From Candidatus Latescibacterota bacterium (GTDB lineage: Bacteria > Latescibacterota > UBA2968 > GCA-2709665), in the NCBI GenBank assembly GCA_965237675.1, contig OZ250150.1, positions 3,104,001 to 3,168,000 of the forward strand: DNA of 64,000 bases, written 5' to 3'. Below the pieces are notes generated by a model. The model was not told where the DNA came from. It did not search any database and worked only from the letters and a program-made list of their open reading frames with translations. A program made the position numbers and the translations under genes. Shown in pieces: positions 12,946 to 47,252 of this stretch (its first letter is position 1; every line of letters begins with the position of its first letter).

Positions 12946-13747
12946 GTGCTCCAGGCATGGCGCGAAGCGGCGACTGAAGTGGAACGGCGCTGGACGCGGA
13001 AGCCGGGCGCCGGACGGCCGCGTCAGGACTTTTAACAAGGAGTGGCAGGATGCCTGTATCTTCGGGTCCGTGTGTCGGTAGCAGGAATTGTGAGCCTACC
13101 CGTAAAGTGCCGGCGATACGGTATTCAGACGACCAATTTCGGGAACCACTTATGGGTCTGCAGTCACAACCACTGAAGCACATCGCTGGCAGCCCTTGTC
13201 GCAAAATGCGACACTGTGCACGGGGCCGTCGAACTGTGTCCACGTCGGCGACGGCGCGGTCTCGGCAGTTACAGCCCGACCGCAACTGGAAACGCGTGTG
13301 GGCGGTGATGGACCTCCGGGTCACTGTTCAAGAATTGCAGCTTGACAGGCTGCCGCCAAGGGTTTACGTTACCCGTGATATTACGTTTCTATACTTTATA
13401 TTTTGGTTATAATATCAACATTTGGCCAGTTGGCGGCGGCGGCGCCGATCTTCCAGGGTCCTCGAAAAGCCTCAACGCCATCAGTATTCATGGGAGGGCA
13501 CGTGGCCTCGTCGACCTACCGTGTTCCCACGTCGCCAGTTGGAGGAACAATTGTAGCGGTGCGTTACAGGAATGGCAACCCGACAACACGATGGTGGAGA
13601 ATCCGGACTACCGTTGCGACCACACTTTCGTAGTAAACCACGCATTCGAATGGGGGTATGACTGTGGGACGTATGGCATATAAATCGTTCGTCGCCGGAT
13701 TGGCGAGTCTCGGCCGTATACGCGGTATCGTGGGCGGCTTGCCATTT

Positions 13748-19700: not shown

Positions 19701-21058
19701 ACTTCACCGTGACGGTGACCGCAACGCCCATGGACGGACAGGCCGGCACGGGTTCATTCGATCTCGAGGTAATATGCCCTGGCATCAGTGTGGGCGGCCT
19801 GCCTTCTTCGACCGTGAAGGCAACCCTAGACCAGGATATCGACGCCATCCAGGCAACGGCGTCCGGCGGACAATCGCCGTATGAGTTTGAGAAGAAGAAC
19901 GGACCGTCGTGGGTGACCGTAACCTCCAGCGGGCGCATCACCGGCACGCCCACCGAAACCGGAGAATTCACCGTGGAGGTGGAGGCGAAGGACGATTGTG
20001 ACTGTAAGGGCACGGGTTCATTTACAATCAAGGTGTGTGAGCCGGTTGCGATCGCGAGTATCTCGGACATCGACGTGTTTGTGAATGGCGCCATCTCGAG
20101 CGACGCGAATGCGACGGGCGGATGCGGAAAAATCGAATATTCGATGGCAGGCGCGCCGTCGGGTGTGAGTATTGATGCTGACAACGGTAACATTACCGGC
20201 ACGGCGCCATCCGCGCCCGACACGTTCGACGTAACGGTGACGGCGACCGACAAGGACTACAGCGATAATCATGCAGAAACGGGTTTTGCAATCACCGTAA
20301 AGACCTGCTCGCCGGTGTCCATCGCGTCGATTGCGGACCCGTGTGTGACGGTGGGCGGGTCCCTCTCGCTTTCGGCGAGTGCGACCGGCGGATGCGGGAC
20401 GATCAACTTTTCGAAGAAGAGCGGCTCGTCATGGGTGACGGTCTCATCGGGCGGTAGCATCACCGGTACGGCGCCGTCGACTGCAGGCACGCACCCGGTG
20501 ACGGTCACGGCCAAGGACTCTAACGACGAATCGAATACCGACGATGAGTCCTTCACGGTCACCGTCGTGACGCCGCTGACCATCGCGGAGCTTTCCGACG
20601 TGGTGGTGACGTGGTTTCTTGACATGACGCCGATCCAGGTGTCGGTATCCGGCGGCAAGGCGCCGTATTCGTACTCACTTGAGAGCGCGCCTATGGGCAT
20701 CTCGATTGACGAGGCGAGCGGGGAGATCAGCGGCACGCCCACGCAACTGGGCAGCGCCACGGTGACGGTTGTCGTTGACGACGACGCCGACCAGCGGGCG
20801 ACCGAGTCGTTCACCTTGACAATCGCGTTGCCCGGCGACTTCAACGGCGACGGCAGGCGCGATGCCGCCGATGCGAAGCTATTCAACAAGAAGATGGGGC
20901 TCGGCAGGTCGGATACGGGGTATGACAAGAGGATGGATCTCAACGGCGACGGGACGATCAACTATGCGGATTTCGTTATCCTCGCGGGCTATATCGAAAG
21001 CGACGCGGCTGCGCGTGGCGACGGTGAATCTGGAAATTCCGGCAAATCGGGTGATTGA
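13748..21058 (+). CDS. Giant secreted surface protein: ~16 fibronectin type III repeats + ~9 putative Ig (He_PIG-like) repeats + C-terminal EF-hand/dockerin-like pair
   Basis: Signal peptide (VFA-QD); repeated VTLTW...GYQVRY...GLTNG..YTFEVRA; ISGTPT..G..TVTVTA; DFNGDGRRDAADA/DLNGDGTINYADF. Frame is open from 13658; start chosen from the signal peptide; repeat counts are by eye. Confidence 0.9.
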   Translation: MHNSSYLAVLLIAMISPPVFAQDVLPPSNLAASVGDSMVTLTWDEPAALAVTGFEVRYGESDAVLPEDWTDIDWKKKVGTDTVTHPVTGLTNGREHTFEVRAFTADGRGQAARVTATPVSPPVAPEGLRASAGAGTVLLAWDDPYDDTITAYETRYGESRTLAFSGWIEGWTEIYGSDAGTTSLEVRDLANWVEHTFEVRAKNAAGAGDSSRVTFVLGPAPSNLAASAGDSMVTLTWDEPTALAVTGFEVRYGESDAVLPEDWTDIDWKKKVGTDTVTHPVTGLTNGREHTFEVRAFTADGRGQAARVTATPVSPPVAPEGLRASAGAGTVLLAWDDPYDNTITAYETRYGESSTLAFSGWIEGWTEIYGSDAGTTSLEVSGPANWVEHTFEVRAKNAAGAGDSSRVTFVLGPAPSNLAASAGDSMVTLTWDEPTALAVTGFEVRYGESDAVLPEDWTDIGWQNRPLTDTVTHEVSGLTNGIEHTFEVRAFTADGRGQSARVTVRMPPAALRDLTGAAGPADVTLTWADPEDASITGYQVRYGASGTALPDWSADEVVEKDAGVTTHTVRGLTIDTQYRFEVRAQAGTAYGEATAVTVTTEAATPTNLRATVASGDVVLTWDAPAASVTGYQILRRVVRSGYSREFRVIATTGRAATTYEDESVGFGWRYTYRVKAMYGEVLSQGSRLARAYVPEPPAAPEGLAAREGDGTVVLTWDDPRDDTLTGYQVRYEESGTRLPTWSGDHDIESDAATTTHEVGGLTNGNEYTFEVRPRNAAGYYGSSRVTATPRPAPAAPDSLAAMAGDGTVVLTWADPEDASITGYQVRYGQSRTALPAWSGDHDVESNASTTRHTVRAVAKGVEYRFEVRARRASAYGASSGVTARLPLPAPEGLSATPGDGQVTLSWRDPQNPYITRYQVRWAAGSAALPQWSDDHTIDDSGAATTTHTVEDLTNGRKYTFEVRARVDDVSGASAPSMATLPPPAPADLEATPGDGRVALTWTDPENDAITGYQIRYSDTDVEQAPWTVIAGSGAATTRHTVPDLANGRVYTIEVRAHVGTGAGDAARVTVPLLPLPGAPRNLRAALDDGNVELTWDPPVVHVESVRSYRIAYWYAGRSGTIGTPTAVTRWEYVVYGGEGIVRYTFKVRAVSNEGFGDWSENVTIEVDTGGSIDPLPPPANLAATAGVGQVLLAWTDPDDDTITGYQVRYSDRGAALPAWSDRHNITSTASTTSHPVTGLTDGTAYTFQVRAKKGDVAGASASVTQPAAPGNLGASAGDASATLSWANPQDAAIVGYQVRWAEAGAALPAWGDIGGSGAATTSHAVTGVTHTTAYTFHVRAKTADADGAYAGVTQPAPPGALTASVGDGSVTLSWDDPQNVAVTGYQYRYRVGGGSFTVWTGFTQGGGAATSGTIGGLTNGSRHTFEVRAKAGNVDGAAASLITIPGPPAPPANLRAGAGNGSVTLTWNDPNNDTIDGYHVRYGRSNVNLPDWSDDHNVDNSGPTTTRHRVSGLTNGRAYTFDVRAYNEVGVGVSDSVVATPTVPPCETLTIDAINDVKVSVNQSFSRTARARGGCAPITITMSGAPSGVTIESGTGRSKTISSSGLSPEGTHTVTVTARDGRGTTATEPFDIIVDCPSISVSQSPANPKVAVGDSVIVTASASGGCGSHTFSDPSGLSWVTKKDESDNQYIVAPTVGTPTGPHYFNVIARDDHDNTGTGRLKVTVIPPSPPECSAIVVSIAPSSVTVKAGGTKTATASAEADCPPITFGKKPPSGPPTWVTVTSTGGITINPPATAAGGHTAVVTATDNQQNTADKDLPITVCEPVAIGSISTQTVPQGGTKTVSVTASGGCGTINMSHSSPDWVGMVSTGGSGTITISPPRGTPTRDYTATVTARDSDLPEENKAETSFKIKVVAPPVRPCDVTVGGLPSGTVTATVCEPIESITAVASGDCPPYTFRIMGGPAGVSIGDSSGVISGKPTQTGDFTVTVTATPMDGQAGTGSFDLEVICPGISVGGLPSSTVKATLDQDIDAIQATASGGQSPYEFEKKNGPSWVTVTSSGRITGTPTETGEFTVEVEAKDDCDCKGTGSFTIKVCEPVAIASISDIDVFVNGAISSDANATGGCGKIEYSMAGAPSGVSIDADNGNITGTAPSAPDTFDVTVTATDKDYSDNHAETGFAITVKTCSPVSIASIADPCVTVGGSLSLSASATGGCGTINFSKKSGSSWVTVSSGGSITGTAPSTAGTHPVTVTAKDSNDESNTDDESFTVTVVTPLTIAELSDVVVTWFLDMTPIQVSVSGGKAPYSYSLESAPMGISIDEASGEISGTPTQLGSATVTVVVDDDADQRATESFTLTIALPGDFNGDGRRDAADAKLFNKKMGLGRSDTGYDKRMDLNGDGTINYADFVILAGYIESDAAARGDGESGNSGKSGD
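13829..15258 (+). repeat. Near-identical 582-bp tandem repeat (~2.4 copies; each unit is two Fn3 domains)
   Basis: Units start at 13829, 14411 and 14993 (TCGAACCT...) with only scattered substitutions. Confidence 0.95.
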
Positions 21059-34744: not shown

Positions 34745-35914
34745 TCAGGGCCTGCCGACAATGGACGGCAGGTTGGTTACGGGGCAGGCTCTCGGCCCCT
34801 TGACGGCATATCCCATGTCTTTTAGGATACAGCTGATCTGCGCTTCAAGCTTGAGCAGATATTCCTTCTCCTCGTTGCTCATGGCCTGGCGTGGCGGGCC
34901 GACGTCGAAACCCCGCACGGCCACGCCGGTTTTAAAGCCTTCCGGGAAGTTCACGCCCAGCAGCATGAGGTTGATGAGATCCAGAATGCGGTATTGCATG
35001 TTGCGTGCGTTTTCGAGATCGCCCGCCAGGGTTTTTTCGTAGATGTCCACGATGACTTCGGGAACGATGCCGGATGTCGCGATCGTGCCGCCGCTGGCGC
35101 CCATCATGATGGAGGGACAGAGGATTTCTTCACAACCCACAAGGACCACGTAGTCCGGGCGCTGTGCGCGAAGCCGGTGCATGGTGTTGATCAGCCGCGG
35201 CATGTCCCGGCTGGAGTCTTTGGTACCCATAATGCGTTCGAACGGCAGCAACCGTTCCATGATGTCCAGCGTGAGTTCCTGCGTGAACTGGGGGATATTG
35301 TAGAGGAGAACGTCGAGAGGCGTCTGTCTGGCGATTTCGGCGAAGTATTCGAAGAGACTCGTGTCGGAAATTTCGTAATAATAGGGGGGTACAAGAGAGA
35401 TGACGTCGACGTCGATGCCGGCGTAGTATTCGCTCATATTGAGCACGTCGCGGAGGTTTGCTTCACTCGCGCCGGCCAGAACCGGCACCCGCCCCTGGTT
35501 GACGTTTGTGACAACGCGCACCACTTCTTTGCGCTCGTCTCTGGACAGGCGCACGAATTCGCCCGTGCTGCCATTGGGATATAACCCGTGGATGCCGGCC
35601 TCGATGAGCCAGTTGACGTAACGCTCCATTTCCCCGTAGTTGATGCGATCGTTGCGGTCGAAGATGACGATGTTGGGACAGAAGATGCCTTTGAATTCCT
35701 TTTTTGCGGCAGGGTTGCGATGCCGGGACGGCACCGAAGTCCGCGAACCGGCGGGCGCGGCGTCTTTCCTTGTCACCTCCACGCGGTTGGCCGCCAGGTA
35801 GTCCAGCGCCAGCGGCGTCAGCTTTGCCCGCGGGCAGATTTCGACCTCACGCTGCGTGCCAAGTTTCTCCTTGAGTAGCTGTTCGGTAACAACCGGATCG
35901 TCAATACGGATCAT
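34745..35914 (-). CDS. Dihydrodipicolinate synthase-family (class I) aldolase with an N-terminal EutT/EutQ-like BMC-associated domain
   Basis: NGSTGEF, PPYY, LYNIP, GTKDSS; N-terminal VVTEQLL...AKLTPLALDYL. Confidence 0.85.
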   Translation of the reverse strand: MIRIDDPVVTEQLLKEKLGTQREVEICPRAKLTPLALDYLAANRVEVTRKDAAPAGSRTSVPSRHRNPAAKKEFKGIFCPNIVIFDRNDRINYGEMERYVNWLIEAGIHGLYPNGSTGEFVRLSRDERKEVVRVVTNVNQGRVPVLAGASEANLRDVLNMSEYYAGIDVDVISLVPPYYYEISDTSLFEYFAEIARQTPLDVLLYNIPQFTQELTLDIMERLLPFERIMGTKDSSRDMPRLINTMHRLRAQRPDYVVLVGCEEILCPSIMMGASGGTIATSGIVPEVIVDIYEKTLAGDLENARNMQYRILDLINLMLLGVNFPEGFKTGVAVRGFDVGPPRQAMSNEEKEYLLKLEAQISCILKDMGYAVKGPRACPVTNLPSIVGRP

Positions 35915-35954: not shown

Positions 35955-37115
35955 TCAGTGAATCAAGCGTTCTTCCAGGGCACGAAAGGGATGGGGGATG
36001 AGATGGGCGGACACCAGTTCTCCATATTTCTCGGCTTCCGTGGCGCCGACTCTCAGCGCCGTGCGCACCGCGCCGACGTCTCCCCGGACAACGCTTGCAG
36101 TGAGAAAGTAACCCACCTTGTACCGTCCCTCGTATTCCACGTCTGCGGATTTCAGCATCTGATCCACCGCCTTGACCAGGGCGACGGTGCTGCGCGTTTC
36201 GATCAGCCCCATCGCCTGATTCCGGCTCACGGGTCTCCTGGCGTCGCCGCAGCCAAAACAGGCCAGAATTTCGGACGATGGACGGGAAACGACGCAGGAT
36301 GCATTCAGTTCCCCGGCCTCCCGGGCGCCGTCGACGCCGGCATGGACGGCCGCCTGAACCGCGTCCAGGGTGCCCTTGACGAGCGCGTCTACTCGACCTC
36401 CGCTGGCGATTACGAGGCGCACGAGGTCCACGTCGACCGCTTTGACCATCGCGTCGCAACCGCCGACTGCGGACGCATAACCCGTCGTTTCCAGTATGCC
36501 CAGCGCGCCGACGTCGGTCTCGGGCGCGTTCGTTATCGGTGTGAAGGGAAGCAGGAGAGCGACGCCCGCTTCGGGGCTCGGAATGTCCAGGGCGGCGAAA
36601 ACTTCTCCAACCTCACTCGCACACGCTTTGCCGGCCTGCACCGCGGTCCGGACCGACGATATATCGCCCCTTACCACAAGATGAACCAGAGCGCCGCCGA
36701 TGGATGTCCAGCCGGCAACCTGGACGGGCGCGCTTTTGATCATGGCGTCCGCGCCGCGGATGAGGGGTACCATGCCGCGGGTTTCCAGAATCCCCAACGC
36801 CAGGGGTCCGACGGGCCTTGTCGAGGGTGCGGCCATCCTGTGTGGCATGGGTTCCAGGGCGCGTACATCAGGACCCGGGATGACATCGGCGGTAACCAGT
36901 TCGCCGTGGTTTTCGGCCTCGGTTCTCCCTATTCGGACCGCGGCCTCTACATCCGAAACGGCGCCTTCAACGACGACGGTTACCCAACCGGAACCGACGC
37001 CGTGTCGTCCGAGAACCCTCACGTCCACGGTCTTCAGCATGGCGTCCAGGGCCGCGATGAGCGCGGCCATGCCGCGGGTTTCCAGAATCCCCATGGCATG
37101 ATTTCGTGCGTTCAC
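35955..37115 (-). CDS. BMC shell protein with four tandem BMC domains
   Basis: Four copies of A(M/L)G(I/L)xET...DxMxK...G...V..A...G...P.P. Confidence 0.9.
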   Translation of the reverse strand: MNARNHAMGILETRGMAALIAALDAMLKTVDVRVLGRHGVGSGWVTVVVEGAVSDVEAAVRIGRTEAENHGELVTADVIPGPDVRALEPMPHRMAAPSTRPVGPLALGILETRGMVPLIRGADAMIKSAPVQVAGWTSIGGALVHLVVRGDISSVRTAVQAGKACASEVGEVFAALDIPSPEAGVALLLPFTPITNAPETDVGALGILETTGYASAVGGCDAMVKAVDVDLVRLVIASGGRVDALVKGTLDAVQAAVHAGVDGAREAGELNASCVVSRPSSEILACFGCGDARRPVSRNQAMGLIETRSTVALVKAVDQMLKSADVEYEGRYKVGYFLTASVVRGDVGAVRTALRVGATEAEKYGELVSAHLIPHPFRALEERLIH

Positions 37116-37124
37116 GGCAGCCGC

Positions 37125-37682
37125 TCAGGGGCCGAATGCCCGGAGGACTTCGGGCAAGGGTTGAGGGATCAGTGCGTCACAGAGGAAGTTTTCCCCGGAT
37201 TCAACGCACGCGCGACCGACGGGCAGGGCTTCGCTCACGGAGGCCACGTCCCCCAGAATAAGGGAGCAGACCACCCGGTTGTGCACGGTGAGCACGTTAT
37301 AGACCCGGACGTCGGCGGCCTTGACCATGCGGTCGTTGGCGGTGACGTGCACGCCGTATCCCCTGGTTTCGATCAGACCCAATGCGCCGGACGGTGTACG
37401 CCGTTCCGGGGCGCCGGGAATCGAGACGTATTCCCGGCAAACGGGTTCGGGTTGTGTCATCGGCGCCGCTACCACGTGGCTCACGACCTCTCTGGCCGCC
37501 TTTTCGCCGCTCTTCAGCGCCGTTGCGACTCTGCTTATGGATCCACCCAAGAAAACGGTGGTGAATCCGCCGATGGATTCCCAACCCAAAAGGTCCACGC
37601 CGGCGGTTTTACAGGCGGCATCCGACGCGAGAATAATGCCGGCGACGCCTTCGACTTCGATCATGCCGATTGCGGCTGACAT
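37125..37682 (-). CDS. BMC shell protein with two tandem BMC domains
   Basis: AIGMIEVEG...DAACK and ALGLIETRG...DRMVK, ending IPQP. Confidence 0.9.
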   Translation of the reverse strand: MSAAIGMIEVEGVAGIILASDAACKTAGVDLLGWESIGGFTTVFLGGSISRVATALKSGEKAAREVVSHVVAAPMTQPEPVCREYVSIPGAPERRTPSGALGLIETRGYGVHVTANDRMVKAADVRVYNVLTVHNRVVCSLILGDVASVSEALPVGRACVESGENFLCDALIPQPLPEVLRAFGP

Positions 37683-38056
37683 GCTTCCGTCCAGGTGTCG
37701 TTATGTCGTACGGTTTGGTCGATATCACTCAACCCGAAAAAATAGATACGGGCCGAACCAAAGTCAAGGGTTATCGACCCCAAGAGACGGGGTTACAACC
37801 TGAGTCGGGCGCGCTATGACCGTTACGTGACGAGACCTCCGCGTTCATACTCGAAAAGCGATGAATTCCCGCTGAAAAGTCGTTTGACAACCGCGGTGAG
37901 TCACGAGTACGGACTCCGGCCGGTGGTACGGCGGTTCGATCTTCCGGAGTGCCAGGGATGAGGAATTCGGTGGGCGGACGATACTGGATTGGCAGGAGAC
38001 ACGGAGGCGGCCGGGGTGCCGGGAAACGACGCTCCTCTATGTGCCCATGTCGGGGC

Positions 38057-40477
38057 TTAGAACAGCAGTACCGAGACCGCTTTCTGGATCATGGCAATGG
38101 AGACGGAGGCCATGCCCACCAGGGACATGCCCACCGAAAACCCGACGTATAGCACCGCGGCATAGAGGCGCCACTGCTGTTTGCCGAAGCGTTTCCAGAA
38201 ATAGAACCGCGCCAGGAGTGCGCCGATGATTTCGGTGATGAGGAGGTGCGGAATGCTGGTCAGGCTCCGTATGTACCCGAAAATGAGCAGTATCGGCAGG
38301 CCGAAGACGGACAGAACCACGAACGAGACCAGGCCGGCGGCGAGTCCGATGAAGATAACCTCTTTCTTGAGGGCCTCGAACAGGATCGGCACGTCGTCCG
38401 AACTCTGAAGGAACGAACCATCGAAGGAGGGTACCTGATCCACTTCGAACTGGTACACCAGTTCCCGCCCCTGAGGGTCCCGGGCTTCGAGAACGACCAG
38501 GTTGGGGTTGGGGTTGTCCGCGTGGCTTTCGTCTGACGGACTTCGCAACACGGGCGCCGAAGGCAGCCCATATAGAAGGGCATCGGAAATGTCCGGTTCC
38601 GCGCGGTCCACCGGGAGCGGTGGCGTGAGCGGACGTTCGAAATCGTTGAAGTTCGTATAAAAGTACCCGACCCGGGACCATGGTCCGTAGGCGCGTTGTT
38701 CGTGATCTTCAATGTCGACGTTGGCCGAGGCGCGTGCGCGCCAGTACCACCAGCTGCCGTCGGGCAGATTGCTGGGCTGGAAGGACACCGTTCCGGAGGA
38801 CACATCCGTTTCCACTTCGCCCTGCATGGTGCCGGTGTACCAGACGCTGCTCTGCAGCGCCCGAAGCGGCCACATCAGCTGTACGTACGGGTAGGCGGCC
38901 GAGGGAATGGGCGCCAGCTTCCAGATGTAGGACCAGTACATGAAGCTGGTAATAAAAATGAGGGGAACCATGAAAATCTCGGCTTTCACGATCCCCGTAA
39001 ATTTCGTGCCCGTGAGTTCGATCTGCCGGAAACGCTCGGCTTCCGCCCCCCAGTTTGCCAGCGGGAAGGGCACAAACCAGATTTCGATGCCCTTGAACCC
39101 GCTCAGAAAGATGGTGGCTTCCTTGATATACGGGATATTGACGTTCTGTCCGACCAGGCCGTCGAGCCGGGCGTTGACAAAGGAGATCAGCGGGGTGTAG
39201 ACAAAAGCGAAGATGAAAAAGAAGGTGAGCAGAACTTTTCCAACCAGGGCGGGAAAGAGAATCTTGGCCAGGATGATGGTGTACATGCTGGCAAGACAGA
39301 AAAGCACGATGCAGATCCAGATACGGAAGTCGCCCCGTCCGGGCGGCGGGGTCCAGCTTCCCGTTTCTTTCTTTTCCAGACGGGCGGTGCGAACCCCGGT
39401 CCAGACCTGGTAGAACCCGATAATTGCGATGGCAACGGTGATGCCGATGCCGAAGCTCATCCAGAAGTCGATGCCGGTGACAAAGTGGGTCATGATGGTA
39501 TCCATGCCCATGAACCAGTGGGGCATGTAACCGTGCCGGTACAGAATGGGGCTGGCCACGGTGTGGATGACGACGCCGATGAACGCGCCCATAACGGCCC
39601 AGAAGGGGGCCAGGAGCCCGGCGAAGATGGGCGCCAGGTGGAGCGTGAATCCCAGCGGCGTGGCCTCCAGGAAATAACCCGTGTACTGGGTGAAATCCAC
39701 CCATGGAATGGGGATGAGTTGAAGCGGATTTTCCATAAACGCGCCGGTAATGGCGGGCACGGCCACGTAAATGGCCCCCCATACCACACCGATGACGGCG
39801 CCGATACTGAAGACGCGCCACTTCCATGTGTATTGCCCGCTGCTCTCTTCCGCAAGCGCCATGGCGGCCTGGGCGTTGATGGGGGCGAACGGAAAGGGCA
39901 GGCGTTCGTAGTCCGAGGTAATGCGGAAGAGCACGTAACTGGCGGTGAACCACTGGATGCGGACCATGATTGTCCCCAGGACGAGCAGGGAGATGGGCAG
40001 GAGCCAGTCCGCGTGGAGAAAGGTGCGGTCGATCAGGGCGGGGGAGTCGGGCGGGGGCGCCCACCAGCGGGGGATGAGGTGCGAGATGCCGAACTGTTTG
40101 GCGGCGGGTGACTGAACATAGTACTGGTGCCAGAGCAGGCCCTCGAATGCGCCGGTTTCGCGGGCAACCAGGGCGCTGGTGACATAAAAGAGAAGATAGA
40201 GTTCCTGCTTTTTCAGCACGGTGAACGAGCGCTTGGCCAGTTCCAGAAACAGGATGATGGTCACCCACTGGGCAGCGGCGCCCACGGTTTGACCCACCAT
40301 AAGTTCCAGGTAGATGTTCCCCGGAACCATAATAATGGAGACGAAGAGCGCGCCGAGAACGGTCTTGGAGTTGAAGCCCTCTTCGAATTCCTTGGGGACT
40401 TCAAGCAGATCCCGGTATTCTTCGATTTCCTCGTACGGATTGGTTTTGCGCCTGCGAAAGAGGTTCGATAACGCCAT
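38057..40477 (-). CDS. OPT/oligopeptide-transporter-like polytopic membrane protein with an inserted Fn3-like soluble domain
   Basis: Many TM helices; YERLPFP; PIPSAAYP; hydrophilic insert at ~38392-38822. Confidence 0.7.
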   Translation of the reverse strand: MALSNLFRRRKTNPYEEIEEYRDLLEVPKEFEEGFNSKTVLGALFVSIIMVPGNIYLELMVGQTVGAAAQWVTIILFLELAKRSFTVLKKQELYLLFYVTSALVARETGAFEGLLWHQYYVQSPAAKQFGISHLIPRWWAPPPDSPALIDRTFLHADWLLPISLLVLGTIMVRIQWFTASYVLFRITSDYERLPFPFAPINAQAAMALAEESSGQYTWKWRVFSIGAVIGVVWGAIYVAVPAITGAFMENPLQLIPIPWVDFTQYTGYFLEATPLGFTLHLAPIFAGLLAPFWAVMGAFIGVVIHTVASPILYRHGYMPHWFMGMDTIMTHFVTGIDFWMSFGIGITVAIAIIGFYQVWTGVRTARLEKKETGSWTPPPGRGDFRIWICIVLFCLASMYTIILAKILFPALVGKVLLTFFFIFAFVYTPLISFVNARLDGLVGQNVNIPYIKEATIFLSGFKGIEIWFVPFPLANWGAEAERFRQIELTGTKFTGIVKAEIFMVPLIFITSFMYWSYIWKLAPIPSAAYPYVQLMWPLRALQSSVWYTGTMQGEVETDVSSGTVSFQPSNLPDGSWWYWRARASANVDIEDHEQRAYGPWSRVGYFYTNFNDFERPLTPPLPVDRAEPDISDALLYGLPSAPVLRSPSDESHADNPNPNLVVLEARDPQGRELVYQFEVDQVPSFDGSFLQSSDDVPILFEALKKEVIFIGLAAGLVSFVVLSVFGLPILLIFGYIRSLTSIPHLLITEIIGALLARFYFWKRFGKQQWRLYAAVLYVGFSVGMSLVGMASVSIAMIQKAVSVLLF

Positions 40478-40604
40478 AGAACTCAATCGAGATTTGAGGG
40501 TTGACGGGCCGAAATTATACACACAATGGCCCGATTTGCAAAGAGAATTTCAGATTTGTGCATTCGGAAGACCCGAATACGCGCGATACACGGCGGGTCT
40601 TTTT

Positions 40605-43600
40605 TTATACGGGTTTCGCCGCTTGTTCGCCGGAGGCCAGTATCCGCATGCCTTTTTCGCGGTAAGCGGCTTTGTCGGCGGGACCGACGGTACGCCATAT
40701 GAGGAACTGTTTGCGCAGGGTGTTTATGAATCCCTGGTTGACCCGGCGCCACGACGCGACTTCACCGGAGAGGCGCCTGAGAGAGAGCGTCAGGGTGTAG
40801 ATGTTGAATTCGCCGGTGGGTTCCGCCTCGAAACGAAGCTCCTGGTTCACACCCAGATCGAAGGGCGCCAGCCAGAGGGTTGTTTGGATGGCGTACCCCT
40901 CCGGGTCGTCCGCGCTTCCGATCCGGTATAAGTGGGCCCCGTCCGTGTAAAATGCCCCTATGGCTTCGCCAGTGTGGGATCGGAAGTAGTCTGCGAGAAA
41001 GACGCAGAGCCCGAACACGTCATTGCCGCCAACCGTAAAGGGGAATTCGAACCGCCAGTCGTCGCCGTCCGGCTCGGGGATTTTCCACCGACGGGACACG
41101 TCCGGCACGGCCATCAGGGAAGCCTGGCGCGCCGGATAGACGGTGGACAGGATCACAACGGCCATAACCAGTACCGACGCGGCAACCGCGGACCGGGCGG
41201 AGTAGTTCAGCGTGACGCCGGAGAGCCAGTCCTGCCACAGCAGCAGTTTGGCAACGCCCTGACCCATCAGGTAGCCGCTCACCGTGCCGAGGACCGCGTA
41301 GACGCACGCTTCGGCAATAAAAAGAAAGGCAACGTGGACCGGAGCCAGGCCCACCGCCGAATAGACGCCGATTTCACGGAAACGTTCGTAAACCGATCCC
41401 ATCATGGTGTTCAGCACGATGAGGGAGGCGATGAGGATGGGGATAAAGAGGTTGCTCAACCCGCGGACCGAGGTGTCTCCGAGCGAACTGAAGACGGCAA
41501 CGTTGATACGCCCGTCCGCGTCCGGCAATCCCGCAAAGAGCACAACCGAGAGCCTGGAAAGGAGCTCCTTGACATAGAACTCCACGTCTGCCCCGGCATC
41601 AAAGCGCAGCGCAACCGATTGCAGCGGGCTGCCCACCTGGCGCAGGAACTTGTAGGGTACAATCAGGATATCGTCAGGGTTGATGTGTTCAAAGGGCATG
41701 ATTTCAACTTCCGGTTGTTCGAGGCCCTGTTTTTCCCGTGTCTCCTGGGTGGTCATCCGGGCGATGGATTCCTCGTCGGTGAGCTTGAAGTCCGCGGGAC
41801 TGAGGGGTTCCTCATCCAGGTCTTTGAGCCGATTGAACGCCTTGGCGTCGATCAGGCCGATAACCGGAAGCGATTCGCCGAAAATCCGGATGCGGGACGC
41901 CGCCAGGCGCCCCGGGTCGACACCGAGGAGGTCCGCCATCTTTTCGGGCAAGATGCAGGCGGTCTCGCCCGGACGGAACCAACGGCCGGTCTTCAGGGTG
42001 CGGTGGACGCCGGTAACGTCAGCCTCCTGGGGCGTCATTCCCAGGACGCCAAGAGCGTGGGTCGAGCGGGTTTCAGACTGGACGGGGATAATCTTCTTCT
42101 CCCGTGTGTAGTACCAACTCCGGGGGGCCGTTATGGCGGATTCCCCGAAATGGGTGACGGCGTAATCGTAAACGACGTCTTCGAGCGCGCCCCAGAATTT
42201 GCTGCGGATGAGCATACCCGGATAGGCGCCCTCGGTGTCTTTTGGAATCCGGTAATATTCAAGGGCCGATTTCATGGAGGTGAACGAGAGAACGGTGAAG
42301 GTGAGCAGCAGCAGTGTGGTAAACGTAAGCACGGTGCGCAGTTTGCGCCGTTTCATGTTCGCGATGCCAAGCTGGAAGGCCGCCATGGACGCGGATACTC
42401 GGCCGACGTCGGTTTCGTGCAGAAGCACTTCCGGGACCCGTAACCGCCGCATGTTTTCGTTGAAGCGCTTGAAGACCAGCGCAATGACGAATGCCGCCAG
42501 CGCCAGAATAACGAAGGCGAGCAGGACGACCATCGGATTGGAGATCTCGAATGCCGGATGAACTCTTGAAAGAAAGAGCCAGATGACCAAAAAGATGCCC
42601 GTAAATCCGACGATCTGTCTTCGGATATCCACGGCGGCGAAAATAAGGCGTTCGGCGAAAAATGCGCATGGGATAACCAGGGCCATGAAGAAAACGATAC
42701 CGCGGACCACACCGTTCTGTGTGTCTTTGACATCCGGATAGGCGCGGGATTCGATGCCGAGCGCCGCCCGCGTGTGTTTCATAAAGTCATCCCAGCGTTT
42801 TGCGGACATCGCGTCCTCAGCCAATTTGAGGTGTTGGCCGGCCTGGCTGTGGAGCAGGTCCAGGCGCTGGTTTTCAATGGCGTATTTCTTCATCTCCCGT
42901 ATACGGGCTTCGTTCAGGATCCACATGTCCCGCGCGGCCCGAAAGGACGTCCGTACAAACGAACCGTGGGTGAAGGTGGGGTACCCGCGGCCACGGGCAA
43001 TTTCCTCACTTTCCGCGCTGTGAGCGTTCAGCAACAGGTACCGGATGCCAATGTCGCCTGAGCCTGCGGTGATGTCGCCCGCGCGCATGGCGATTTTGAC
43101 CCTCTCGCCGGGTTGCGTGAACAGGGTGCCTACGGGTTCTGTCGGACCGAATCCGATGGCGTAACCGTATTCCTGCGGCGTGACGTTGCCGCTTCCGTAA
43201 ACGCTGATCTGCGAGAGTTTGGTGAGGTAACGTGGATCGACGGTATCGTAAAAGTCTGTGGCGACGCAGGGGAATAAAATGAGATTTCGCTTGGAGATCC
43301 ACCAGTCCATATCGAAGTTACCCCGGTAGATACGCGCCTGCTGTCCAAAGTTGGGGGCGTAAGTGATTTCGCCGGTGTCCGGATCCAGGTAGTACGCGCT
43401 GACGGAGACACGGCGTTCGGCGATCCCGGGCATGTAGAATTCGCCGTTTTCGTCCGCCAGGTCGTAATAGATGCGGCGAACGCCCTTGATGGACTTGTCG
43501 ATGCCCATACGCAGCGCGGCGATCGCGCCCTTTTTGGGACGGTCGGGTACGATGCTGCGCCTCGGATAGGTTCGCACGAATCCCTTAAGCCCGCGCATAC

Positions 43601-45140
43601 GGTCGTCCGGGTTGAGTCGGTAGTCCGGGATGAGCGTGGGGTCGTTCAGGGCAATGTCGAGAACGCCGGTGATCAGTCGAATCTGCCTGGTGAGGTTCTC
43701 AAAGTTGACCCGATCCGGCTGGTCCAGCGGCGTATCGACGCGAAAACGGGCGTCGTTCAAGGTGACCAGAGACAGGGAGAGGGTGCCGGCTTCGAGAACC
43801 ACTTCGCCGTCGGTTTTCAGGTTTTTGCCGGGCATGTACATGTCCCAGGTCATTCCGCCCGTGGGATTGATGCCGTCAAGCAGCGCCTGCCTGGGGTCGA
43901 GCCCGAAGCCGGGCGCGATGGCTTTGGAGATCCTGACGAATTTCTTGCCGAACGGCGTGAAGAACCGGTTGTAATAAAAGTTGCGCGTGCTGTTCCAGAC
44001 GCCGATCTGGGAGGTCTGGCTGGAGAGGTCCAGTCCAATGAAGAGCCGAATGTCGATGGGATCTGTCATCAGGGCCGCAAAGTGTCGTTCCTTCCTGGCG
44101 TGACGGCCCAGAAAATCGCAGATTCCGCGAAAGCCCAGGTGGTGGGCGGAAGTGGCCAGAAAGAGCACCGTACGCCCCGTCGGATATCGATGAAAGTAGT
44201 TGACCAATTCAAGCAGTGCGACGGCGCCGCTGGCCATCTCAGCGCCCGGGGCGAGGGCGGGCACAACGGACATGGCGTCGTAGTACGCGTTGATCACGAC
44301 GATCTGGTCCCGGAGATCCGGATCCGTGCCCGGCAGAAAGCCCAGAATATTGTGGGCGGTGTGGTTCTCCCAATCCATTTTCGCGTTCAGTTCGATTTCC
44401 AGTTCGCCGTACCGTGCCAGCAACCGTTTGAGGGCCTGCCCCGACTGTTTGTCGATCCAGAAGCGTTCCACGCTGTTTGGCACCTGCAGGAATTTCTGTT
44501 CGGCTTCGGTGTAAAACGTGGAGTCCGGTTCAATGAAGATAATTTGTCCCGCCCCGAGGGTGGCCGCGTTGAGCCAGTTGTTCCGGGTGTTGAATTCCAT
44601 CAGGACGGCCGCCGCCTCAAGTGTGTGACCGTTGAAGTCGGAAAATTCGCCGTTCGCCCCGTAGATCAGGCGCGTGCGAACCCCTCCCCGCGGCAGGGTG
44701 GAGGTCTTGACCAGGTTCGGCCAGATGGCGTGAATGGCAAACGTGGTATTGTCGCGCAACAGGGTCAGACTACCGCCCTTGTCGATGGGGGCGGTGACGT
44801 CGAAGGGCTCGGCGCGGACGTCCTGGAGGCCGGCGCGCTCGAAAGTTTGGCGGATATAGTCTGCGGCGGCGTTGTGGCCGGGATATCCCGGAATTCGGGA
44901 ACCATGTTCCGTAAAGCGGGCCATGTGGGCCCGCACGCCTTCATGCGAGACCGTATCCAGGACGCGGACCGATGTCTCGCCGGCTCCCGGGACCGGCAAG
45001 GACGGCGAGGGTTGGGGCGTCTGCAGGCCCAACAGGGAGGAAAGAAGCGGGTTGACGCGTTCCGGGCCCACCGCCAGGCCGATAAAGGCGGCGGCGGTGA
45101 GCAAGAGCGCCACGGCGGATGCGATACGGCGGTTTTTCAT
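40605..45140 (-). CDS. Large membrane protein: PA/M28-peptidase-like domain + MacB/FtsX-like ABC permease
   Basis: SRIPGYPGH, HNILG, NAYYD, PGAE; NMKRRKLRTVLT; NTMMGSVYERFREIGVYSAVG; YPARQAS. Confidence 0.85.
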   Translation of the reverse strand: MKNRRIASAVALLLTAAAFIGLAVGPERVNPLLSSLLGLQTPQPSPSLPVPGAGETSVRVLDTVSHEGVRAHMARFTEHGSRIPGYPGHNAAADYIRQTFERAGLQDVRAEPFDVTAPIDKGGSLTLLRDNTTFAIHAIWPNLVKTSTLPRGGVRTRLIYGANGEFSDFNGHTLEAAAVLMEFNTRNNWLNAATLGAGQIIFIEPDSTFYTEAEQKFLQVPNSVERFWIDKQSGQALKRLLARYGELEIELNAKMDWENHTAHNILGFLPGTDPDLRDQIVVINAYYDAMSVVPALAPGAEMASGAVALLELVNYFHRYPTGRTVLFLATSAHHLGFRGICDFLGRHARKERHFAALMTDPIDIRLFIGLDLSSQTSQIGVWNSTRNFYYNRFFTPFGKKFVRISKAIAPGFGLDPRQALLDGINPTGGMTWDMYMPGKNLKTDGEVVLEAGTLSLSLVTLNDARFRVDTPLDQPDRVNFENLTRQIRLITGVLDIALNDPTLIPDYRLNPDDRMRGLKGFVRTYPRRSIVPDRPKKGAIAALRMGIDKSIKGVRRIYYDLADENGEFYMPGIAERRVSVSAYYLDPDTGEITYAPNFGQQARIYRGNFDMDWWISKRNLILFPCVATDFYDTVDPRYLTKLSQISVYGSGNVTPQEYGYAIGFGPTEPVGTLFTQPGERVKIAMRAGDITAGSGDIGIRYLLLNAHSAESEEIARGRGYPTFTHGSFVRTSFRAARDMWILNEARIREMKKYAIENQRLDLLHSQAGQHLKLAEDAMSAKRWDDFMKHTRAALGIESRAYPDVKDTQNGVVRGIVFFMALVIPCAFFAERLIFAAVDIRRQIVGFTGIFLVIWLFLSRVHPAFEISNPMVVLLAFVILALAAFVIALVFKRFNENMRRLRVPEVLLHETDVGRVSASMAAFQLGIANMKRRKLRTVLTFTTLLLLTFTVLSFTSMKSALEYYRIPKDTEGAYPGMLIRSKFWGALEDVVYDYAVTHFGESAITAPRSWYYTREKKIIPVQSETRSTHALGVLGMTPQEADVTGVHRTLKTGRWFRPGETACILPEKMADLLGVDPGRLAASRIRIFGESLPVIGLIDAKAFNRLKDLDEEPLSPADFKLTDEESIARMTTQETREKQGLEQPEVEIMPFEHINPDDILIVPYKFLRQVGSPLQSVALRFDAGADVEFYVKELLSRLSVVLFAGLPDADGRINVAVFSSLGDTSVRGLSNLFIPILIASLIVLNTMMGSVYERFREIGVYSAVGLAPVHVAFLFIAEACVYAVLGTVSGYLMGQGVAKLLLWQDWLSGVTLNYSARSAVAASVLVMAVVILSTVYPARQASLMAVPDVSRRWKIPEPDGDDWRFEFPFTVGGNDVFGLCVFLADYFRSHTGEAIGAFYTDGAHLYRIGSADDPEGYAIQTTLWLAPFDLGVNQELRFEAEPTGEFNIYTLTLSLRRLSGEVASWRRVNQGFINTLRKQFLIWRTVGPADKAAYREKGMRILASGEQAAKPV

Positions 45141-45245
45141 TGGAAAATACGCAAAAGCTCCTGTAGAACTGCGATTGATGGGCTGTGCTGCCACATAGAT
45201 ACACGCTGCGGGCGCCGTTCGGCGAAGACCTCGCGTGCGTGCAGA

Positions 45246-47252
45246 TCAATATCGATGAACGCTGTGGCCGCGCTCCGGGAACCACAGGATGTCAATGAAA
45301 GCGGAGAGGGCAACGCCCAACACATAGCCGGTGAGCAGGCCGATGAAGAGGGGGCGGGACTTTCTGAAAAACGAAGGCCCCCCCACCTTGAGCATCACCA
45401 ATTTGACGAGCCAGGCAAGAAGGATGGTCAAGCCGGTCCGGCGGGCGAGGTACGATCCGGAGATTGCCATACCGATCGGATGCAGCGGCCACCAGACGAA
45501 TCGATGCCGCAGGTAAATGAGCAGGAGCGTGACCAGGCCGCCCAGGCCGAAAAACACCACCTGTTCAGGGTGTTCGCGGTAAACGGGCGGATCCGGCTTT
45601 TTTTCGAGGAAGTTCTTGATGGAAGTCGCGGTGCCTTCGAAATGTTTGGGTCCCGCACGTACGATCTCCCATGAGTTGAAGTTGTACGCACCGTCTCGGT
45701 ATCCCAGATGGATCGTGAGCAGTACGCTGACGCCATAGCTGGTCAAAAAGGCCATCCCGACGGCCAGCATGAGCTTTCTGCGGTCGCCCCGAACGCCCTC
45801 AGCCACGCGCCCCGCGTGGGCAAGCGCCGGCAGGAAGAGACCCTTGAAATGGGACGTAATCCTGGACGCGAACCGGAGGGCGACCCGCGTACTTGCGTTG
45901 ACCGCGGGTCCCTCGAGAAAGGGCGCCACGAGGCCCCAGGGGCCGGCGGGGACGTTCGTGTACGGCATGCCGGTTTCGGCGAGAATTTTAGCCATGCCGA
46001 CGTAGGTGAAGATCACAGCCGGGAGGAGGAGGGATGCCAGCAGCGGATCAAAGCCGATGCGCGTGAGCCAGAGCCACATGTATCCCAGGCCCACGAGCAG
46101 GGCGATAACAGCCGTCCGATAGGAGAGCGGTTCGTCCCGGTCGTCCAGGGGATCGTTCTTGCGCCATGCTTTGCGGACCACATCCCTAATGTGACGTCTG
46201 GCAACCCAGAAAACCGAGGCGGCCAGCACAACAAATGCGCCCTTGGTCTGCCAGTAATAGACGCCTCGGTAATAGTAGGGGGAAATGGCCGTAAACCCTC
46301 GCCGGTGCAGCCAGCCGCCTTCGAAGATAAACAGCAGGTCAAAAAACCAGATGCTGAAGAGTATGTCCAGGCTGGCGAAGTAAGAAAAAAAGATGGTGAA
46401 GAGTCCCAGGAAACGAAACACTGGCGGATGCTGCCGGTCGATCCAGTACCAACTCCCGCGGTAGATGGGAAACCGCGGAAAGCCGGGCAGGAAGTAGTTG
46501 ATGCAGTTCCACGCGATCATCCCGAAGGCCAGTCCGAACCCGATCCAGAACAGGTAATTCCTGGTGAAGTCCGGCAGCACGAATTTACCTCTGCCCGGAT
46601 TCTCCACCATGTTGACCAGGGGCGCCATGGCGGGAAAAGCCAGCCGCTCGTTTTGTACCCATTGTTTGCGAAAAACGACGGCGACACACGCCAGAACCAC
46701 GAATGCGGCAACGATGAACGTGGTCCACCACAGCAGCGGAAGGACCCACGCGGCCCAGGGGATCTGCGCGCCCCTGGGGATGCCCTCGAAAAACCAGGTC
46801 ACCGCTTTGTTTTCGTCCGAAGGGACGAGCCACGGATTGATATAAGGATGCAGGTACGTGGCCCATTCGTTGACTTCGGTGGCGAAATAATATGGTGCCG
46901 CGATGTAACCGATCAGGTATCCGCTGATGCCGAAGCCGGGTATGGCGGCGCCCACAACGCCCATGGCCAGGATGGTATGCCATTCCGATTGTGAGAGCTG
47001 CCATCGGGTAAAACGTGCGATCAACGCGCCGATGACGATCATCAGTACAAACACAATGAGCATGGCCATCGGTACATGGCTGTAGGTCATTAACGAGCCG
47101 CCCACGACGTACCGGATGTGGATCGCCAGGGCGTCCAGGCCGACGACCAGCACCAGGCCCGAAATGACGGATCGGACCGTGACGCCGGGGGACCTTTCGG
47201 AGGGGACTTCGTCCGGTTTGCCGGATTGTACGATTCTCTGTGGGTTGGCCAT
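45246..47252 (-). CDS. Conserved polytopic membrane protein (DUF6785/DUF6784-like, distant OPT relative)
   Basis: RKQWVQNERLAFP; WWPLHPIG; SRPLFIGLLTG. Confidence 0.7.
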   Translation of the reverse strand: MANPQRIVQSGKPDEVPSERSPGVTVRSVISGLVLVVGLDALAIHIRYVVGGSLMTYSHVPMAMLIVFVLMIVIGALIARFTRWQLSQSEWHTILAMGVVGAAIPGFGISGYLIGYIAAPYYFATEVNEWATYLHPYINPWLVPSDENKAVTWFFEGIPRGAQIPWAAWVLPLLWWTTFIVAAFVVLACVAVVFRKQWVQNERLAFPAMAPLVNMVENPGRGKFVLPDFTRNYLFWIGFGLAFGMIAWNCINYFLPGFPRFPIYRGSWYWIDRQHPPVFRFLGLFTIFFSYFASLDILFSIWFFDLLFIFEGGWLHRRGFTAISPYYYRGVYYWQTKGAFVVLAASVFWVARRHIRDVVRKAWRKNDPLDDRDEPLSYRTAVIALLVGLGYMWLWLTRIGFDPLLASLLLPAVIFTYVGMAKILAETGMPYTNVPAGPWGLVAPFLEGPAVNASTRVALRFASRITSHFKGLFLPALAHAGRVAEGVRGDRRKLMLAVGMAFLTSYGVSVLLTIHLGYRDGAYNFNSWEIVRAGPKHFEGTATSIKNFLEKKPDPPVYREHPEQVVFFGLGGLVTLLLIYLRHRFVWWPLHPIGMAISGSYLARRTGLTILLAWLVKLVMLKVGGPSFFRKSRPLFIGLLTGYVLGVALSAFIDILWFPERGHSVHRY

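Follow-up and report, generated by a model that had tools for sequence, protein, structure and literature searches.

Adjacent genes for two-domain and four-domain microcompartment shell proteins are conserved in Latescibacterota and may encode an asymmetric six-domain tile

Introduction

The shells of bacterial microcompartments (BMCs) have been described as symmetric tilings, each unit being built from six chains of one domain, three chains of two domains or five chains of a pentamer protein, and the lysine of a D-x-x-x-K edge motif makes the contact from tile to tile. A natural tile with more than one kind of BMC domain is known from carboxysomes, in which CcmK3 joins CcmK4 in mixed hexamers that are thought to tune permeability. 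Here we analyse a 64,000-nucleotide stretch of the genome of a Candidatus Latescibacterota bacterium (assembly GCA_965237675.1, contig OZ250150.1, positions 3,104,001 to 3,168,000; hereafter the window), in which two adjacent genes encode a 185-amino-acid (aa) protein with two BMC domains, A1-A2, and a 386-aa protein with four, B1-B2-B3-B4. The two chains may together close a single ring of six different domains. Unlike the CcmK3/CcmK4 hexamers, which consist of single-domain subunits in variable stoichiometry and without covalent order, such a ring would have both its order and its stoichiometry fixed.

BMC-T(s) proteins such as PduT, CcmO and HO BMC-T1 resemble the two chains in being unpermuted PF00936 fusions that fill neighbouring positions of a hexagonal tile, and the 185-aa protein shares their length and domain count. 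By the two-domain criterion for BMC-T, the 185-aa protein alone belongs to the class; the 386-aa protein, with four domains, does not. BMC-T is also the product of one gene and forms a threefold-symmetric trimer, whereas here two chains, with two and four domains, are proposed to form a ring without symmetry. The CcmO model (NF053792) was the best NCBIfam match for both proteins, at 240.2 and 82.4 bits, and a CcmO identity was rejected because both chains fall below its equivalog cut-off of 270. The 386-aa protein exceeds the cut-offs for EutM and CsoS1 merely because its four domains add up, and these identities were also rejected, as the domain count differs.

The best match in sequence (E = 7e-35) and, for both chains, in structure is 6ner, a synthetic tandem BMC-H from a Haliangium ochraceum shell, in which two BMC-H-like domains follow each other head to tail and take adjacent ring positions. 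That fusion is engineered, carries two domains of identical type and forms a symmetric trimer, whereas the six domains of the natural pair have diverged and are divided between two chains. At the level of the locus, the closest parallel is with satellite 'EUT modules', in which, according to the available text of a 2021 shell-protein catalogue, signature enzymes and a EutL-type shell protein are added to a microcompartment of another type (PMC8217296). The window locus, with its tile genes and an aldolase, resembles these modules in lying far from the main locus and in pairing a cargo enzyme with a shell tile dedicated to it. It differs from them, as that text describes them, in having a DHDPS aldolase and another tile architecture, and in related families the genes sit inside the main locus.

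The same catalogue presents trees for six shell-protein types and distinguishes five hexagonal building blocks, all of them single- or double-domain, and in its available text two-domain BMC proteins normally form trimers (PMC8217296). In the literature, including the available text of PMC8217296, PMC4207490 and PMC4454575, we found no description of three-domain or four-domain BMC proteins; the supplementary trees and locus diagrams of PMC8217296 may hold such proteins uncommented or under another label. A preliminary description of this DNA, drawn up from the sequence and without database searches, had stated that no natural tile of this kind was known, and within the same bounds our search agrees with it. 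Judged by the literature found, the 4+2 pair would add a new tile architecture to a shell system that is itself well known.

Gene pair and domain architecture

Both genes lie on the minus strand, the two-domain gene first (Table 1). PF00936 matched the 386-aa protein in four stretches (253.5 bits, E = 8.9e-77) and the 185-aa protein in two (108.7 bits, E = 1.4e-31; cut-off 24.5 bits). Every match spanned profile positions 1-72/75 in the normal order, and single domains scored 53-77 bits in a scan of the whole genome. In AlphaFold2 models the unpermuted beta-alpha-beta-beta-alpha-beta order is present in all six domains, repeated four times in one chain and twice in the other; neither the Pfam order nor the models showed the permuted-type order (BMC-Hp, BMC-Tsp or BMC-Tdp) in either chain. 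A PF00936 signal of six domains is far beyond chance, and both proteins are unquestionably BMC shell proteins. The preliminary description had read the locus as co-oriented genes 9 bp apart with two and four non-permuted BMC domains and had expected PF00936 counts of four and two, and the list of open reading frames (ORFs) and the profile search bear this out.

The four-domain gene also has an in-frame ATG at codon 8, which would give a protein of 379 aa and a gap of 30 bp to the two-domain gene; 379-aa database relatives of the four-domain protein begin at the position of that ATG.

For an alignment we set the domain boundaries at the conserved N-terminal strand and added the genome's two single-domain BMC-H proteins to the six domains. 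Pairwise identity among the six was 24-48%. All of them carry the D-x-x-x-K edge motif in the forms that the preliminary description had listed (Table 1), and the alignment reproduced its six different pore loops, with the distinct strings SIG-G, TVHNR, GVGSG, SIGGA, ASGGR and KVGYF for A1, A2, B1, B2, B3 and B4. Corner motifs also vary among the six positions, and the linkers between domains are all of similar length. Judged from sequence only, the pore loops of A1, B1, B2 and B3 present small residues and those of A2 (H/N/R) and B4 (Y/F) bulky ones. A2 and B4 flank A1 in the proposed ring, where their loops could contribute either a shaped opening or a plug.

Table 1 Coordinates of the shell-protein gene pair, its domains and associated features, in positions of the window
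Feature	Position	Strand	Details
Two-domain shell protein gene	37125..37682	-	185 aa; ORF with two PF00936 matches; first of the pair
Domain A1	37389..37679	-	Residues 2-98, including linker to A2; edge motif DAACK; pore loop WESIGGF; clade SH-aLRT 100
Domain A2	37128..37388	-	Residues 99-185; edge motif DRMVK; deviant pore loop LTVHNRVVC with one-residue insertion; clade SH-aLRT 99
Inter-gene junction	37116..37124	-	9 bp, from stop of two-domain gene to GTG of four-domain gene
Four-domain shell protein gene	35955..37115	-	386 aa from GTG start; ORF with four PF00936 matches
Domain B1	36804..37103	-	Residues 5-104; edge motif DAMLK; pore loop GRHGVGSGW; clade SH-aLRT 98
Domain B2	36510..36803	-	Residues 105-202; edge motif DAMIK; pore loop GWTSIGGAL; clade SH-aLRT 100
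Domain B3	36219..36509	-	Residues 203-299; edge motif DAMVK; pore loop RLVIASGGR; clade SH-aLRT 89
Domain B4	35958..36218	-	Residues 300-386; edge motif DQMLK; pore loop GRYKVGYFL; clade SH-aLRT 99
DHDPS/NAL-family class I aldolase gene	34745..35914	-	389 aa; 40 bp downstream of four-domain gene; usual third member of the module
Aldolase N-terminal extension	35735..35914	-	About 60 aa; homologous to N-terminus of Cys-rich 165-aa protein
Promoter-like site	37739..37767	-	TTGACT-17-TATTTT, about 57 nt upstream of two-domain gene; consensus match only

Conservation and pairing of the two genes

The four-domain family comprises 286 related clusters at 90% identity, and the best 120 of these 286 are all 366-424 aa long, with 52-100% identity. 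For the two-domain family we found 255 clusters with 57-92% identity. Wherever a source is named, in either family, it is a metagenome-assembled genome of Latescibacterota or Gemmatimonadota.

Conservation extends over all domains of both chains. Among 48 four-domain and 49 two-domain homologues, mean column identity was 59% and 60%, respectively; the aspartate of the edge motif was invariant at all six positions, and its lysine was invariant at five and at least 90% conserved at the sixth. The four-domain alignment holds 54 invariant columns, with all four domains conserved. Pore-loop residues were mostly invariant or nearly so (H38 and W44 in B1; W136 and G140 in B2; G239, G240 and R241 in B3; G335, L338 and T339 in B4). 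The two-domain homologues shared D21, K25, W34, G38 and G39 in A1 and D117, K121, R136, V137, V138 and C139 in A2 without exception.

The preliminary description had proposed to compare genomes for whether the four-domain gene always neighbours a two-domain gene, and had named four-domain homologues that commonly lack such a partner as evidence against its reading. In 151 genomes of the window's phylum, searched at E <=1e-40 for the four-domain gene and E <=1e-25 for an A1A2-type gene, we found the former in 70 and the latter in 71. Both were present in 70 genomes and neither in 80; the four-domain gene never occurred alone (0 of 70), and the two-domain gene did so once, in a genome (G114) where the match is cut by a contig end. 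The two genes are direct neighbours on one strand, with the two-domain gene upstream, in 69 of these 70 genomes; the other genome (G139) is 77% complete and fragmented into 660 contigs, with both genes at contig ends. By family, and with the window's own genome excluded, the four-domain gene was present in 13 of 18 genomes of f1 (all of the window's genus), 2 of 30 of f2 and 54 of 64 of f3.

An independent scan of metagenomes gave a similar picture. It recovered 62 four-domain loci, 49 of them with a visible upstream side, and in 47 of these 49 an A1A2 gene lies just upstream; the two misses (L082 and L089) are contigs that start inside the four-domain ORF. We measured in 28 genome loci how far the stop of the first gene lies from a start codon of the second; in 27 the spacing falls between -14 and +9 nt, with many one-base or four-base overlaps, and the remaining junction measures 175 nt. 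Such spacing is the usual signature of coupled translation, which we infer for this pair. DNA contigs from independent runs bridge both gene junctions, and many of the 70 genomes with an intact four-domain ORF are single-contig assemblies. Two contigs from RNA libraries, X19 (36403-37703) and X20 (36977-37413), extend over the two-domain gene and a portion of the four-domain gene, junction included. They derive from two libraries of one sponge metatranscriptome study and represent a relative about 90-93% identical, could stem from DNA and do not imply a single transcript, and so give a weak hint that the pair is expressed.

The linkers of the four-domain gene are interrupted in two metagenome contigs. 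One (L055:277-1452) has an in-frame TAG in the B2-B3 linker with a start codon directly after it, and the other (L088:3258-4431) has a frameshift in the B3-B4 linker. Both breaks could be errors or could reflect natural splits into 2+2+2 and 2+3+1.

Six fixed domain positions

With one hidden Markov model for each domain position, built from the family alignments, we recovered the order A1-A2 and then B1-B2-B3-B4 in 28 of 28 loci (the window and 27 others), the correct position scoring about twice as high as the runner-up. Complete metagenome loci had the same order. We also placed 129 domains from 14 loci, among them those of the generic two-domain and single-domain shell proteins found there, in a quick maximum-likelihood tree. 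Each position formed a single clade in it, with support by the Shimodaira-Hasegawa-like approximate likelihood ratio test (SH-aLRT) as given in Table 1. Clade stems were long, at 0.6-1.9 changes per column, and longest for A1 and A2 (1.77 and 1.88). The position-specific order and the single clades with long stems thus place the divergence of the six domains before that of these genera, and each position has stayed distinct ever since.

We also looked for a fused form with all six domains. None was among the best 120 of 286 matches in a search restricted to near lengths (212-676 aa), all 120 being the four-domain proteins described above; nor was there one in the best 150 of 4982 matches among 1.84 billion representatives. 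Those 150 contained a single full-length protein with four domains, besides fragments and proteins of three, two or one domain. A 569-aa candidate (P0290) was rejected as it holds only two BMC domains.

The same search turned up unpermuted PF00936 proteins of three domains and about 283-330 aa, in at least 14 representative clusters (P0250, P0252-P0258, P0260, P0264, P0271, P0278, P0288 and P0297). The P0256 family alone contains dozens of clusters (about 283-316 aa, 42-81% identity), some named from Sumerlaeia and Hydrogenedentota. Like the four-domain protein, these are natural fusions of more than two unpermuted BMC domains, with a count that divides or complements six; unlike it, they are not orthologous to any of the six positions described here, their position scores being ambiguous. 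Two copies of one such chain could close a ring with twofold symmetry, and a total of six domains per ring, reached through different domain counts, may be a more general pattern.

Structure and complex models

AlphaFold2, given the family alignments, modelled the four-domain chain with a mean predicted local distance difference test (pLDDT) of 90.1 and a predicted template modelling score (pTM) of 0.88, and the two-domain chain with 92.7 and 0.89. At these pTM values, the placement of the domains relative to one another is predicted with confidence. The top Foldseek matches of both chains were chains of 6ner, here as the tandem BMC-H fusion in a solved synthetic shell, with template modelling (TM) scores by target of 0.89-0.92 and a root mean square deviation (rmsd) of 2.3-4.0 Å for the four-domain chain, and 0.82-0.86 and 4.1-5.0 Å for the two-domain chain. 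By this superposition, consecutive domains are placed like neighbours in a hexagonal tile, with the same geometry in both chains. The natural two-domain trimers PduT, HO BMC-T1 and 3nwg fitted one domain only (TM about 0.4, rmsd about 15 Å), possibly because the chain runs the opposite way round the ring. None of the 49 PDB sequences that matched at E <=1e-10 is longer than 213 residues, and among them there is no solved chain with more than two BMC domains.

We then modelled a complex of one four-domain and one two-domain chain, using our own alignments, next to three control partners that were unrelated proteins. The preliminary description had suggested such a model of the 1:1 pair, and in it the ring closes. 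The complex scored 0.82 (0.84, 0.82 and 0.81 in separate runs) against 0.00 for the best of the three controls. Of 80 solved complexes, 58 reach the mark applied to this score, as do 2 of 110 mismatched pairs; these counts are rough here because our own alignments were used. Runs shared at least 94% of their contacts, and the pLDDT of the partner was at least 90.

Contacts between the chains form two patches, both with low expected error: residues 8-92 of B1 meet residues 107-138 of A2, and residues 308-365 of B4 meet residues 7-87 of A1. G140, at the tip of the B2 pore loop, also touches the other chain. In both patches, the face of helix 1 and strand 2 packs against the face of the next domain formed by strand 1, the pore loop and the C terminus, and this pairing of faces gives the ring order A1-A2-B1-B2-B3-B4-A1, which continues the order of the genes. 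The model thus supports 1:1 binding and closure of the ring. As solved BMC hexamers are abundant and the controls were unrelated, non-BMC proteins, it speaks for the feasibility of a canonical ring rather than for specificity.

Genomic context

The genome has eight PF00936 domains in total, the six in the window and two in single-domain genes (C1:5139 and C1:11948), and the PF00936 scan revealed no other multi-domain BMC protein in it. Its main microcompartment locus (C1:2841-12385) encodes, in order, PTAC, BMC-H, BMC-P, aldehyde dehydrogenase, two BMC-P, class II aldolase, acetate kinase and BMC-H, with the Pfam families PF00596, PF00171, PF06130 and PF00871, three copies of PF03319 and two of PF00936. 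The genome of the pair has pentamer genes (three PF03319) together with aldehyde dehydrogenase, PTAC and acetate kinase. As far as the available text of the sources describes it, a PVM-like microcompartment combines a class II aldolase as signature enzyme with aldehyde dehydrogenase, PTAC and a BMC-P triplet (PMC4207490, PMC8217296), and the main locus matches this type by gene content. The second BMC-H of the main locus (C1:11936-12385; 149 aa) carries a C-terminal extension of about 60 aa after its BMC domain.

The window locus (C1:3139958-3141682) lies 3.1 Mb from the main locus and has no PF03319 gene nearby, which makes it a satellite locus in the sense in which the available text of PMC8217296 uses the term. 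In family f3 and in most metagenome loci (L020-L038 and L047-L091), by contrast, the pair sits inside a complete microcompartment locus. These loci begin with a LytB-like protein, BMC-P, an FAA-hydrolase on the opposite strand and one or two pairs of a generic 185-aa two-domain protein and an 87-aa BMC-H; they continue with aldehyde dehydrogenase, PTAC, a Cys-rich protein of 165 aa, A1A2 and B1-B4, and end with an N-extended DHDPS aldolase, a DAO-family FAD oxidoreductase, a second, weak DHDPS-like protein and a protein with a LON-substrate-binding domain. They apparently represent a conserved, widespread and uncharacterised type of microcompartment locus in Latescibacterota-like bacteria.

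An aldolase usually follows the pair. The one in the window matched PF00701 over residues 74-361 (191.4 bits, cut-off 22.1; E = 1.9e-56) and stayed below the cut-off for all NCBIfam equivalogs (NanA, DapA, KDG aldolase and KdgD). Its closest solved relatives were 3eb2, a putative DHDPS, and YagE (2v8z), of the 2-keto-3-deoxy-sugar-acid aldolase type, both at E about 1e-35, within a range of 1e-35 to 1e-33 that also included KDG aldolase and N-acetylneuraminate lyases. Among diverse genome loci, 17 of 20 have an aldolase directly downstream of the pair, and among metagenome loci 33 of 41 do; two of the eight metagenome misses (L085 and L096) are script artefacts, and two others (L078 and L089) have an unassigned gap of 1.2-1.3 kb that could hold the gene.

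In an alignment of 17 aldolases with 16 Cys-rich proteins, the first 55 or so residues of the aldolases correspond to the N-terminal part of the Cys-rich protein. A search of the genome gave a match over residues 3-57 (E = 8.6e-4), and the Cys-rich protein itself was not found in the window's genome with that one query. The shared N-terminal domain had no Pfam match up to E 10 and none in the PDB sequence search; its sole NCBIfam match was a faint one to TIGR02536 'eut_hyp', an ethanolamine-utilisation hypothetical family (E = 0.065). We regard it as a candidate shell-targeting domain. The Cys-rich protein (for example, L023:8412-8909 on the plus strand) has a conserved Cys-rich core, lies directly upstream of the pair with homologues in 16 of 20 genome loci, and has no Pfam or PDB sequence match and, beyond that faint one, none in NCBIfam.

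Interpretation

We think it likely, from the models taken together with the conservation of the pair, that one A1-A2 chain and one B1-B2-B3-B4 chain form a closed asymmetric ring, running from A1 through A2, B1, B2, B3 and B4 and back to A1. Such a tile would be without internal symmetry, presenting six edges that all keep the canonical lysine contact, six pore loops and six faces. Coupled translation from one transcript would yield equal amounts of the two chains, and the tile could insert into the facets of a PVM-like shell in the way of an ordinary hexamer. Pair and aldolase would then constitute a satellite module, an enzyme plus its own tile, for the PVM-like microcompartment encoded 3.1 Mb away. 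Inside the shell, the aldolase would make pyruvate and an aldehyde that the core aldehyde dehydrogenase could take over, and the tile would supply a conduit for the substrate or products of the aldolase, a docking site for it, or both. The preliminary description had proposed a 1:1 heterodimer that gives an asymmetric pseudo-hexamer. Co-occurrence, the coupled type of junction, the position-specific domains, their compatible geometry and a ring-closing model all point that way, and the part of the proposal that concerns binding stands on modelling. Its further idea, that of a pore adapted to an asymmetric substrate, for example a keto-deoxy sugar acid, draws on a single observation, the DHDPS-family aldolase that is usually found downstream; the DAO-family neighbour in related loci would also fit a substrate derived from a D-amino acid, or a hydroxy-oxo-acid.

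The main rival is that the two proteins build separate homo-oligomeric tiles, the two-domain chain a BMC-T-like homotrimer and three four-domain chains two covalently linked pseudo-hexamers, placed side by side in a staple or stacked face to face like a double-layer BMC-T, with the pairing of the genes reflecting co-regulation only. Trimers are indeed the normal state of two-domain BMC proteins in the available text of the catalogue (PMC8217296), twelve domains divide into two rings, and the linkers, all similar in length, mark no special break. The complex model, moreover, holds one chain of each kind and compares no alternative stoichiometries. Yet a one-to-one, always adjacent and translationally coupled arrangement exceeds what co-regulation needs, and related loci have one or two ordinary two-domain genes of 185 aa next to the pair, so that A1A2 is not required there as a generic trimer. 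The tree stems are longest for A1 and A2, and the pore loop of A2 no longer has the usual motif. In the models, A2 is joined to B1 and B4 to A1 with low expected error, and the four domains of the longer chain are held in one rigid arrangement (pTM 0.88) and not as two pairs. On balance we consider separate tiles improbable. An origin of the four-domain gene as an assembly chimera, which the preliminary description had named as a way in which it could be wrong, or as a decaying array of duplicated shell genes has practically no probability left. Nothing was found in its favour save the linker breaks in the two metagenome contigs (L055 and L088), and it is refuted by the intact ORF in 70 genomes, by 286 protein clusters and 62 metagenome loci, and by the conservation of all four domains with their invariant columns. 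Independent assemblies agree, and the DNA contigs from independent runs that bridge both junctions exclude a chimera in the assembly.

A third possibility accepts the ring and refines the reading of an asymmetric tile, with which it is compatible. The role of the tile would be structural or organisational, its pore closed or irrelevant, and its asymmetry would offer a unique docking face for the shared N-terminal domain or edges that fix the position of the tile in a facet. The proteins that flank the pair, the aldolase and the Cys-rich protein, share that domain of about 55 aa; in the model the B2 pore tip contacts the opposite chain, the pore loops of A2 and B4 are bulky, and corner motifs differ across the six positions. 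Against it, the pair is also found where no aldolase lies directly downstream (3 of 20 and 8 of 41 loci). We hold this role to be possible but rather unlikely.

Several observations weigh against the asymmetric tile itself. The high score of the complex may stem from its likeness to the many solved BMC hexamers, and the complex model covers a single stoichiometry, that of one chain each. In the four-domain chain, conserved columns were overrepresented at the modelled interface (24 of 44 versus 103 of 342, P = 0.002), whereas in the two-domain chain their excess was weak (18 of 42 versus 41 of 143, P = 0.09). Co-variation between the chains, a test too weak here to argue in either direction (mutual information with average product correction; 60 unique pairs, effective number of sequences 36.6), gave no signal: pairs across the predicted faces averaged 0.005 against a background of -0.0001 (P = 0.09), pairs across swapped faces gave P = 0.64, and none of the top 60 pairs fell in the predicted or the swapped interface set. 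Since the aldolase is missing downstream in the loci just mentioned, the tile is not strictly tied to it. A fused six-domain gene, which would establish the ring by a Rosetta-stone argument, is absent from the matches listed, and the genes remain separate although a small change at the junction could fuse them. The case for an asymmetric tile so far consists of sequence, genomic linkage and models.

If the asymmetric tile is real, the 2+4 pair would break the rule that shell units are symmetric. One pore would be lined by six different loops, the six edges would be non-equivalent, and each surface feature would be present in a single copy, which bears on selective transport through shells and on the attachment of cargo in defined numbers. 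It would also offer a natural template for addressable engineered tiles, with one modification per tile and directional assembly. A bolder extension, which we put forward as speculation that may well prove wrong, is that the fully asymmetric 2+4 tile constitutes a fourth class beside hexamer, trimer and pentamer. Together with the aldolase it would be a portable plug-in, giving that enzyme a private shaped pore for an acid-sugar or oxo-acid substrate and a single docking face for its N-terminal domain, and retrofitting an existing microcompartment of the fucose/rhamnose type to use a second substrate; the three-domain relatives would hint at a wider 'sum to six' family that has gone unrecognised.

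Other features of the window

A consensus scan for promoters returned three sites in the region, against 1.5 expected, among them the one upstream of the two-domain gene (Table 1). A similar consensus scan of the minus strand from 38143 to 33147 found no terminator-like sites. Downstream of the aldolase, the same strand encodes a CehA/McbA-type metallohydrolase, two PhyH dioxygenases and a zinc alcohol dehydrogenase, followed by a DAP-epimerase-like protein, an NAD epimerase/dehydratase and an enolase-superfamily protein.

Three large genes precede the pair on the minus strand (38057-47252), and no link between them and the shell genes was seen. They encode an 821-aa multi-pass membrane protein without a Pfam family (38057-40522), a 1529-aa protein with a C-terminal FtsX-like permease domain (40605-45194) and a DUF6785/DUF6784 protein (45246-47252). 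On the plus strand, an ORF of 2466 aa (13658-21058) occupies a stretch of raised G+C content (0.66-0.68, compared with about 0.60 elsewhere).

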